Shown here piece by piece: positions 42,231-45,108 of a stretch of 50,001 bases of DNA (positions are counted from its first letter, which is position 1; each line of letters opens with the position of its first letter). The notes beneath the pieces are model-generated. The model saw nothing but the letters and a program-made list of their open reading frames with translations, did no database searches and was not told where the DNA came from. The translations under genes and the position numbers were made by a program. This stretch comes from Staphylococcus phage phiSabovST1. The stretch is from the sequence record PQ281812.1; one strand, written 5' to 3'.

Positions 42231-44123
42231 ATGAACGAAAAAACTGGCATAGATCAATTTATGAGAAAAGAAATTGAAAGTTTAGGTGTAAGTTACGATG
42301 AACAACAAAGCAGCAATGTTGAAATAGCAGAAGCGTTAAAAACAGCAAGTAAAAGTTTAAGTGGGAAAATAGGCAAACCAGAGTTTTTATTTTTCAGCAA
42401 TGAATTTTTAGTTGTTGTTGAAGACAAAAAAGATATACATAAGCATGAAATGAAGTCTGAAAGAGGCGAATTAATACTAGATTCATCAGAAATACTGAAA
42501 GAGTATGCAGTTAATGGCGCAGTGCATTATGCACAACACATAATTAAATATACAAATATAATTGATAAGGTTTTTGCTGTTGGTGCATCAGGTGATGGGC
42601 ACACAAATCATATATCAATATACTACGTAGACAATGGACAATGTAAATTTATTACAAATACAAAAAGTATGAAAGAGTTACATCCTGATCACATTACAGA
42701 AATTTATAAAGTGTCTGTTTTAGGCGAATTGACTAAAGAAGAAATAGAAGTTCAAGATGTGAAAAAATTTGCAGCACAAATACATGAAGATTTACGCAAT
42801 TATGGTTCGTTAGAGAGTGAGCGTAAAGCCTCGGTAGTATCAGCTATTTTATTAGCATTAGAAAATAGAGATGAAATATTTAATTTAGATATGTTGACTG
42901 GATTAGAAGAAGAGGGAGTAAGGGACGGAGACAAGATTTATAATGCTGTTCAAATGTATCTAAAACAAAACGCAGATATAAGACCAGCAAAAAATGGGGA
43001 AATATTAGAATCTTTTATGTTTATAAAGAATGATTTGAAGTTAAACCGTATCCATAGTCAATTAAATATGACACCTTTAAAGTATTTTTCTGTAAAACTA
43101 AAAAATAAGTTTGTGCATAATGATATGGATATTCTTGGTAGTTTTTATGGTGAATTTGTAAAATATGGTGGTAATGACGGAAATGCATTGGGTATTGTGT
43201 TAACCCCCCGACACATTACCAATTTAATGTGCGAACTTATTAGTATTAATCATACTGATTTTGTTTTAGATCCTTGTTGCGGTTCTGGCGGTTTTCTAGT
43301 AACTGCAATGAATAAGATGTTTAATCTAGCGGATACAAAAGAAGAAATTAAAAGTATAAAGCAAAATCAAATACACGGAATTGAATTAACTCAAAGTTTG
43401 TTTACAACTGCTACAACTAACATGATTTTACGTGGGGATGGTAAAAGCAATTTAAGAAGAGATGATGTTTTTCATGTTGACAAAGAATATTATAAAGATA
43501 AAATAAACAAAATATTACTAAACCCACCTTATTCACAGGCTAAGACTAAAAATTTAAGCCATTTGTCAGAAATCAGCTTTATCAAAGAATCGTTAGAATA
43601 TATGAAAACAGGAGGTAAGCTAGCCGCTATCATCCCTCAAAGTACAATGATTGGTAAAACTAAGAATGATAAGAATTACAAGCGCGAAATACTAGAAAAG
43701 CACTCATTAGAAACAGTTATTACGCTTAATAAAGATACATTCTATGGTGTAGGTGTTAACCCATGTATTGCAATTTTTACCGCAGGTATTCCACAGGATG
43801 AGAAAAAACGAGTTAACTTTGTAAACTTCACTGATGATGGCTATGTTGTTCGTAAACATATTGGACTGGTGGGAGATGGTACTGAGAAATCAAAAAAAGA
43901 ATATCTTTTAAACGTGTTAAATGATTATGAAGATGCGGATACTAACTTTTTAGTTAAATCCCCTATTACATGGGAGGACGAATGGCTACATAGTTTCTTT
44001 TACTACAATGAAGAAATACCTACTGATGAGGATTTTGAAAAAACAATAGCTGATTACTTATCTTTTGAATTTGACATGAAACTGCACGGCAGGGGGTATT
44101 TATTTGATGATAAAACTGAGTGA
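42231..44123 (+). CDS. BcgI/Sau42I-like type IIB restriction-modification enzyme, fused endonuclease-methyltransferase (RM/A) subunit
   Basis: 630 aa. N-terminal PD-(D/E)xK-like motif (GKPEFLFFSNEFLVVVEDKKD = PE...ExK). Gamma-class N6-adenine MTase motifs I (VLDPCCGSGGFLV) and IV (LLNPPYSQ). The size matches the BcgI A subunit, not a canonical ~520-aa HsdM. The overlapping downstream S gene has two TRDs. Confidence 0.65.
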   Translation: MNEKTGIDQFMRKEIESLGVSYDEQQSSNVEIAEALKTASKSLSGKIGKPEFLFFSNEFLVVVEDKKDIHKHEMKSERGELILDSSEILKEYAVNGAVHYAQHIIKYTNIIDKVFAVGASGDGHTNHISIYYVDNGQCKFITNTKSMKELHPDHITEIYKVSVLGELTKEEIEVQDVKKFAAQIHEDLRNYGSLESERKASVVSAILLALENRDEIFNLDMLTGLEEEGVRDGDKIYNAVQMYLKQNADIRPAKNGEILESFMFIKNDLKLNRIHSQLNMTPLKYFSVKLKNKFVHNDMDILGSFYGEFVKYGGNDGNALGIVLTPRHITNLMCELISINHTDFVLDPCCGSGGFLVTAMNKMFNLADTKEEIKSIKQNQIHGIELTQSLFTTATTNMILRGDGKSNLRRDDVFHVDKEYYKDKINKILLNPPYSQAKTKNLSHLSEISFIKESLEYMKTGGKLAAIIPQSTMIGKTKNDKNYKREILEKHSLETVITLNKDTFYGVGVNPCIAIFTAGIPQDEKKRVNFVNFTDDGYVVRKHIGLVGDGTEKSKKEYLLNVLNDYEDADTNFLVKSPITWEDEWLHSFFYYNEEIPTDEDFEKTIADYLSFEFDMKLHGRGYLFDDKTE

Positions 44124-45108
44124 TAGAGAATGGCATTCATTTCTATTAAATGATTTATTTATTGTCGAATCTGGAAAAGATATAACACTATATAACAATA
44201 GTGGTGATTTACCATATATTAATTCATCAGGTGTAAATAATGGGATAACAAAATTCGTTGAAAATGGGAAAAAGATGCAGAGAAATTTTATAAGTATAGC
44301 AAGGACAGGTACAGTTGGTGCGACATTTTATCATGATTATACAGCTGTCGCTTCGGGTAATGTAAGAATGTTAAGACCAAAGTTCTTTAATTTTAATAAA
44401 TACATTGGAATGTTTTTTATCGAAGCAATAAAATATAATATTAGCAATAGATTTAGCTATGGTAATATATTAGGAACCAATAGGATAAAAAAATTAAAGT
44501 TGAAGTTACCTGTTGATTATAACAACCAACCTGATTATGACTTCATGGAACGCTATATCAAAGAAAAATATTTTAATATAAAATCACAAGTAAAAGTGAA
44601 ACAAAAACACAAAATTTCTGATTGGCGAGAGTTAGATGAGGTTAGGTGGGAAAACTATTTTATAGAATCTCTATTTCTAATAAAGTCTGGGAAAAGACTA
44701 ACTAAAAATGATTTCGTAAGAGGTTTGACCCCATTTATTGGATCAACTGATAGCAATAATGGAATTACTAACTACGTCAGCAACACAAATTCTAGTGAAG
44801 ATTCTAATGTTTTAGGAGTTAATTATAATGGCAGTGTTGTAGAAAATTTTTATCATCCATACAAAGCCATATTTTCAGATGATGTTAAAAGATTATCTTT
44901 AAGGAACAAAGGCAACAAATATACTTATCTTTTTATAAAAAATATGATATTAAAACAGAAAGAAAAATATCAATACGGTTATAAATTTAACGCTAGACGT
45001 ATGAAAAAACAAATAATCAGCCTCCCCACTAAAAACAATCACCCTGACTATGAATTTATGGAGCAATACATGAAACGAAAAGAAAACGAAATATTTGACA
45101 GATTATAA
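44104..45108 (+). CDS. type IIB/type I-like specificity (S/B) subunit with two target-recognition domains
   Basis: 334 aa. Internal duplication (LNDLFIVESGKDIT...NNGITKFV vs ESLFLIKSGKRLT...NNGITNYV; QPDYDFMERYIKEK vs HPDYEFMEQYMKRK). ATGA overlap with the RM gene. Confidence 0.8.
   Translation: MMIKLSDREWHSFLLNDLFIVESGKDITLYNNSGDLPYINSSGVNNGITKFVENGKKMQRNFISIARTGTVGATFYHDYTAVASGNVRMLRPKFFNFNKYIGMFFIEAIKYNISNRFSYGNILGTNRIKKLKLKLPVDYNNQPDYDFMERYIKEKYFNIKSQVKVKQKHKISDWRELDEVRWENYFIESLFLIKSGKRLTKNDFVRGLTPFIGSTDSNNGITNYVSNTNSSEDSNVLGVNYNGSVVENFYHPYKAIFSDDVKRLSLRNKGNKYTYLFIKNMILKQKEKYQYGYKFNARRMKKQIISLPTKNNHPDYEFMEQYMKRKENEIFDRL

Follow-up and report, generated by a model that had tools for sequence, protein, structure and literature searches.

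We analyzed a stretch of 50,001 nucleotides from Staphylococcus phage phiSabovST1 (sequence record PQ281812.1), referred to here as the window, and concluded that two overlapping genes at positions 42231 to 45108 constitute a complete two-gene type IIB (BcgI-like) restriction-modification (R-M) system. The system is a diverged orthologue of Sau42I, the R-M system of phage phi42, and is carried as a moron between the leukocidin genes lukM/lukF' and the attachment site attR of a phiPV83-type prophage with phi11-type attachment (att) sites. We give this reading a probability of roughly 0.9, and our confidence in the family assignment is high. An initial annotation, made from the sequence without database searches, had proposed a BcgI/Sau42I-like module; that proposal was supported by the identity to Sau42I, by full-length matches to PADLOC models, and by the conservation of the nuclease motif. 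The two genes are the following:

42231-44123, plus strand: gene for the RM (A or alpha) subunit, an ATG-start open reading frame (ORF) of 630 amino acids (aa) comprising nuclease, helical connector, N6-adenine methyltransferase, and C-terminal region
44104-45108, plus strand: gene for the S (B or beta) specificity subunit, 334 aa from a TTG start or 333 aa from an ATG at 44107

The ORF coordinates bear out the two overlapping genes of 630 and 334 aa that had been described initially. For S, both the B_UFSM5 annotation and public gene calls use the ATG at 44107, giving the 333-aa product. The S gene overlaps the RM gene by 20 nt when counted from the TTG and by 17 nt when counted from the ATG; a G-rich ribosome-binding sequence lies upstream of the S gene start. 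Minus-strand ORFs within the RM and S genes were just 50–55 aa long and look mechanical.

Family assignment

The RM protein matched the PADLOC model REase_MTase_IIG (PDLC03602) over residues 1–627, corresponding to model positions 2–632 of 637, with an E-value of 4e-240. The best PADLOC model for a type I methyltransferase (MTase) covered residues 297–570 only (E 1.9e-42), and type I M subunits among PDB sequences aligned just to RM residues ~293–545. The S protein matched the PADLOC model Specificity_II (PDLC03591, 341 positions) with E 3.8e-89. We take the lengths of the two models, 637 and 341, to be the sizes of BcgIA and BcgIB. Pfam found no HsdM_N domain in the 630-aa protein and confined the N6_Mtase match to residues 298–544. 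Ahead of the MTase domain there are thus ~290 residues, not the N-terminal extension of ~230 aa estimated at first. The initial annotation had set its proposal against an orphan type I M+S pair, whose M subunit would carry HsdM_N and lack a nuclease-fold N terminus. Pfam and the full-length REase_MTase_IIG match describe a different protein and, with type I M matches limited to the region given above, its rejection of the type I pair stands.

The family profile matched the RM chain of BsaXI (8w0p_A) at query positions 177–415, across connector and MTase, with E 1.3e-9. NCBIfam had no specific model for either protein and gave weak, partial matches to MADS2/Alw26I-type methyltransferases, far below the cut-offs. 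The identical RM protein is named 'HsdM family class I SAM-dependent methyltransferase' or 'N-6 DNA methylase' by NCBI. For close homologues, NCBI and JGI use the name 'restriction enzyme BgcI subunit alpha'. The cassette at 42171–45116, whose borders are described below, contains the two genes only; an HsdR-type ATPase/translocase subunit is not among them.

Relationship to Sau42I

A tblastn search of phage records found a full-length RM match of 70.6% identity in the phi42 record X94423, which is titled 'S. aureus bacteriophage phi-42 DNA with ORFs (restriction modification system)' and contains a pair of overlapping ORFs, 639 and 337 aa long. The original Sau42I paper is reportedly that of Dempsey et al. 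in 2005. The BLASTP comparison with Sau42I that the initial annotation had suggested, performed against the X94423 proteins, gave 71% identity over 630 aa for RM and 46% over 334 aa for its S partner. The record of the phi42 int region (U01872) gave a 94.7% match to RM residues 518–630. Identity of RM to Sau42I climbed along the protein, from 55–62% in the nuclease to 65–87% in the methyltransferase and 93–98% at the C terminus. In S, the conserved regions were 67–77% identical, and the target recognition domains (TRDs) just 33–47%. Conserved S regions that are kept while the TRDs have diverged fit a common scaffold with altered DNA specificity, and because of this low TRD identity the recognition sequence is probably different from that of Sau42I. 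Sau42I itself is cited in the literature as a BcgI-like, phage-encoded R-M system.

Domains and motifs of the RM subunit

The RM protein was divided into the following regions:

42231-42680, plus strand: predicted N-terminal PD-(D/E)xK nuclease domain, residues ~1-150
42378-42428, plus strand: codons of the putative catalytic motif P50-E51-x12-E64-D65-K66, placed by motif position and conservation
42693-43100, plus strand: multi-helical connector, residues ~155-290, from AlphaFold2 (AF2) helices and the profile match to BsaXI RM (8w0p_A)
43122-43862, plus strand: gamma-class N6-adenine MTase domain, residues 298-544 (Pfam N6_Mtase, E 1.2e-34)
43269-43295, plus strand: motif I DPCCGSGGF, residues 347-355
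43521-43532, plus strand: motif IV NPPY, residues 431-434
43863-44120, plus strand: C-terminal region, residues 545-630, the part closest to Sau42I by sliding identity; presumed S-subunit contact region

Both gamma-class motifs named in the initial annotation, DPCCGSGGF and NPPY, were found, and motif I comes ahead of motif IV, as in the gamma class. The nuclease motif that it had written as PE, 13 aa, EDK is present at residues 50–66, but the spacer is 12 residues. In an AlphaFold model of residues 1–290, made from a 41-sequence alignment, the predicted local distance difference test score (pLDDT) exceeded 90 at about residues 11–160. E51 stands immediately ahead of strand 52–56 in this model and E64-D65-K66 at the end of strand 59–66; these are the usual placements of the PD and (D/E)xK elements. 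The predicted fold of the N-terminal domain matches the PD-(D/E)xK domains of restriction nucleases.

The nuclease motif residues were invariant in the 120 closest database homologues, except that position 51 was E or D. Among 29 sequences, consisting of the window protein and 28 distant homologues (43–72% identity, from Firmicutes and Actinobacteria), GKPEF...(V/I)EDK was retained in 28. A scan of species-representative genomes gave 31 related loci, none of them from Heyndrickxia coagulans, and an S-like gene lay immediately downstream of the RM homologue in 28 of the 31. The homologue in Rummeliibacillus suwonensis (L036, 3001–4893) has a degenerate nuclease motif, EKAEF...VQRK in place of GKPEF...VEDK, and may be a methylase-only derivative.

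The S subunit

Pfam found two Methylase_S stretches in the S protein, which together with the Specificity_II match agrees with the two-TRD partner proposed initially. A phmmer search of PDB sequences with S gave no match. The approximate layout of TRDs and conserved regions (CRs) is:

44107-44511, plus strand: TRD1
44512-44646, plus strand: CR1
44647-45006, plus strand: TRD2
45007-45105, plus strand: CR2

At the related locus of Streptococcus cuniculi (L038), the S gene is followed by an additional half-S (TRD) segment at 6027–6497. It is 62% identical to residues 181–326 of the window S protein and may provide a reserve TRD with which specificity could be switched.

Location in the prophage and spread

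The features that place the two genes within the prophage are listed below.

2186-2197: attL core TTCCCATGGATC, from three-way alignment with the B_UFSM5 attP
42171-45116, plus strand: RM cassette, 2946 bp, bounded by blastn against phiPV83 (L002)
45304-45315, no strand assigned: attR core TTCCCATGGATC, from the same three-way alignment

The 12-bp att core occurs in exactly two copies in the window, with 0 expected by chance; a search for long exact attL/attR repeats gave a 13-mer by chance only. The prophage is ~43.1 kb long, its integrase gene is at 2278–3324 on the minus strand, and the S gene ends 196 bp short of the attR core. Because the att cores bracket the module and packaged phage genomes carry it, the module is inside the prophage. 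The initial annotation had placed it on or next to the prophage, and of these two the first was correct; a chromosomal island beside the prophage was ruled out by the same two observations. At the attL end the prophage has inserted into a yfkB-like radical SAM gene (1103–2233, minus strand), at its 5' end. The attL core is inside this ORF, and in the lysogen phage DNA provides the start codon and the first ~12 codons.

The 5' neighbors of the cassette are lukM and lukF'-PV(P83), with 97.9% DNA identity to phiPV83. By blastn, phiPV83 has sequence in common with the window at 39000–42170 (97.9%) and 45117–45300 (96.8%), and none between. The cassette, consisting of a putative -10 element and both genes, precisely substitutes for phiPV83 orf62/orf63. 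These two genes (L002, 5671–7410) encode proteins of 139 aa and, with a DUF6575 domain, 390 aa, and correspond to phrog_18546 and phrog_17999. A defence role was considered for them and set aside, since neither had a PADLOC match. The RM cassette and orf62/orf63 look like alternative cargo for a single slot that separates the toxin genes from attR. The cassette is flanked by neither direct nor inverted repeats and therefore has no transposon-like signature. A non-coding segment of ~190 bp lies just upstream of the cassette (window 41982–42168); B_UFSM5 (L003) has a second copy of it, 73% identical, after its amidase gene at 3634–3821. Such a segment may be a recombination substrate for moron gain and loss.

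A tblastn search of phage records found identical proteins in the packaged phages B_UFSM1, B_UFSM3, B_UFSM4, and B_UFSM5 from bovine milk; in these phages both genes are placed between the amidase and attP/int, and lukMF' is absent. Public assemblies contain the exact RM protein in 1424 indexed blocks. The cassette was at least 99.9% identical, and without disruption, in nine other S. aureus genomes. A leukocidin pair was present upstream in 9 of the 9 contexts listed, with an S component of 308 aa (LukM-type) or 311 aa. The 311-aa S component (L007, 5583–6518; L011, 5584–6519) has an N terminus unlike that of LukM and may be of the equid lukP/Q type.

Transcription signals

The hairpins around the cassette are the following:

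41842-41868 and 41954-41977, plus strand: two strong hairpins after lukF' (z -4.7 and z -3.5), part of the phage backbone
45115-45151, plus strand: terminator hairpin downstream of the S gene, with a T-run behind it (z -4.6, fold -17.6 kcal/mol)

The initial annotation had counted three stacked terminators between lukF' and the RM gene and had taken them, together with a promoter, as signs of an autonomous cassette. Two of the three are strong; the third, at ~42131–42160, had z -0.6 and was no better than shuffled sequence. All three upstream hairpins and the downstream hairpin are also present in phiPV83, which is without the RM genes, and they are therefore features of the backbone and not evidence for an autonomous cassette. 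The claim of an own promoter was overstated. A consensus scan placed no promoter immediately ahead of 42231, and the count of promoter-like sites across the region equaled the shuffled expectation. By eye, an extended -10-like element, TGcTACAAT, is present at 42188–42196 on the plus strand, aligned with a TATAAT upstream of the phi42 gene, and it is a possible promoter of the cassette.

The segment from the first to the second hairpin (41842–41976, plus strand) gave a weak Rfam match to the phage-borne small RNA SprD (RF01828), with 27.6 bits against a gathering score of 100 and E 0.013 in 7.5 kb. The 3' hairpin of this match is closely like the SprD terminator, and a sigma70-like site, TTTGCA-17-TATTAT with a TG, is present at 41874–41902. 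A small RNA gene might lie between the 'stacked terminators'.

Proposed mechanism and alternative explanations

BcgI-like enzymes have two RM subunits to one S subunit and need no separate methylase (PMC3874165). They cut on either side of a bipartite site, dependent on S-adenosylmethionine and Mg, and the same protein methylates both strands (PMC3874165, PMC3592470). The type IIB enzyme BsaXI, also an (RM)2S complex, contains a PD-(D/E)xK domain at the N terminus, followed by a multi-helical connector and the MTase; its N-terminal PD-(D/E)xK residues are essential (PMC11997821). BcgI cannot cleave without Glu53 of its PD...ExK motif, the E53A mutant being nuclease-dead (PMC3592470). By analogy, two 630-aa RM subunits would assemble with one S subunit, whose two TRDs would read a bipartite DNA sequence. 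Each RM subunit would methylate one adenine per half-site at N6, dependent on S-adenosylmethionine and by means of DPCCGSGGF and NPPY, and this methylation would mark the host chromosome, the prophage, and the DNA of progeny phage. The N-terminal PD-(D/E)xK domains (E51, E64, K66) would cleave unmethylated incoming DNA beyond the site, at fixed distances from it, probably to either side and after assembly of several protomers. The lysogen would thereby restrict foreign DNA, including that of superinfecting phages. The activity, specificity, and cleavage geometry given here are extrapolated from BcgI and BsaXI, and expression in the lysogen, stoichiometry, and biological effect are proposed in the same conditional sense.

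Several points weigh against the interpretation as a complete BcgI-like system. Window E51 is equated with BcgI Glu53 by motif and position, not by direct alignment to BcgI. A Foldseek search of the PDB with the N-terminal model gave no significant match; the full-length AF2 model had low confidence over the MTase and the C-terminal region (mean pLDDT 63.9) and was set aside. The cassette promoter is a consensus-level reading only. A review calls Sau42I type IIS-like and not cutting on both sides (PMC6532042), which makes the cleavage geometry of the Sau42I subfamily uncertain.

An orphan type I-like M+S pair would methylate only, for phage self-protection or epigenetic marking, or would borrow the unlinked HsdR of the chromosomal Sau1 system. 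The MTase core and S subunit are homologous to HsdM and HsdS, the NCBI names on the identical protein point the same way, and a lone hsdMS is not odd in S. aureus, where hsdR is encoded apart from the hsdMS pairs. We nevertheless consider this explanation highly improbable, for HsdM_N is absent and type I M subunits align only with the middle of the protein, the first ~150 residues form a conserved, predicted nuclease domain with its catalytic motif intact, the match to the REase-MTase fusion model of PADLOC is full-length, and the nearest described relative, at 71% identity, is the BcgI-like system Sau42I.

Somewhat less improbable, yet still unlikely, is a system that belongs to the BcgI/Sau42I family by descent and has lost restriction in this prophage, being silent in the lysogen or acting as a methylase only, for example to protect phage DNA in lytic growth. 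The expression and activity of the module are matters of analogy and its promoter is a weak consensus reading; the two strong hairpins ahead of the cassette make read-through from lukMF' unlikely, and relatives that appear nuclease-dead exist, as in R. suwonensis. These points are opposed by the state of the genes themselves. Both ORFs are full length relative to Sau42I with all catalytic motifs intact, the same undisrupted A and S proteins are found in nine independent genomes and four packaged phages, and the nuclease motif is strongly conserved across the family. We therefore prefer the complete BcgI-like R-M system.

Significance

This system is correctly read and already published. Its principle is known from Sau42I; Park et al. 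(2022) described BcgI-like alpha and beta genes beside lukMF' in a phiPV83-like prophage, and Holden et al. (2013) a BcgI-like enzyme on phiSa2 of EMRSA-15. The novelty implied in the initial annotation was overstated, as the report of Park et al. precedes it. The remaining value lies in the recognition site and the activity of this allele. Public labels such as 'N-6 DNA methylase' and 'HsdM family methyltransferase' hide a probable nuclease and a complete defence system. A self-contained restriction system carried along by the lukMF'-type toxin phages of livestock S. aureus would affect the host range of phage therapy, the genetic tractability of strains, and gene flow between lineages. As a tentative extension, which we regard as rather less than an even bet, the cassette would have a new recognition specificity, and its near-clonal spread (at least 99.9% identical; 1424 blocks), always behind a host-specific leukocidin pair of the LukM type or the 311-aa variant, could mean that the system is a gatekeeper and addiction module stabilizing ruminant- and equid-adapted toxin phages and shaping exchange between lineages, with the slot between toxin genes and attR as a swap site for defence cargo.

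Comparison with known systems

The closest known system is Sau42I of phi42. Both systems have the gene order RM then S with an overlap of 20 nt, and both are on a temperate, toxin-converting S. aureus phage, beside attP. The RM proteins are 630 aa (window) and 639 aa (phi42) and have PE-x12-EDK, DPCCGSGGF, and NPPY in common; the S proteins are 333/334 aa and 337 aa, with the central and C-terminal regions conserved. The two systems differ in position. In phi42 (L044; U01872, 328–2502) the S gene immediately precedes int and is thus on the int side of attP, with attP beyond. The window genes, by contrast, are found at the attR end of the prophage, which is the lysis/toxin side. The two phages also differ in backbone and integration site, the window prophage having phi11/phiPV83-type att sites.

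Like BcgI, the window system combines an N-terminal PD...ExK nuclease and a gamma-class N6-adenine MTase in one polypeptide, with a separate two-TRD S subunit, and has a putative catalytic Glu in a PE motif (window E51, BcgI E53). BcgI, the archetype of two-subunit type IIB enzymes, is chromosomal in Bacillus/Heyndrickxia coagulans, whereas the window system is phage-borne in Staphylococcus. BsaXI (cryo-EM structures 8W0P, 8W2P, and 8W2Q) resembles it in the profile match across connector and MTase, but the sequence similarity is remote and the BsaXI RM chain, at 916 aa, has knob and paddle elaborations that are absent from the window RM protein. With the type I Sau1 HsdM/HsdS of S. aureus it has in common a homologous gamma-class MTase core and the TRD-CR-TRD-CR layout of S. 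It differs from Sau1 in that its RM protein lacks HsdM_N and has a predicted built-in N-terminal nuclease, where Sau1 uses a separate, ATP-dependent HsdR.

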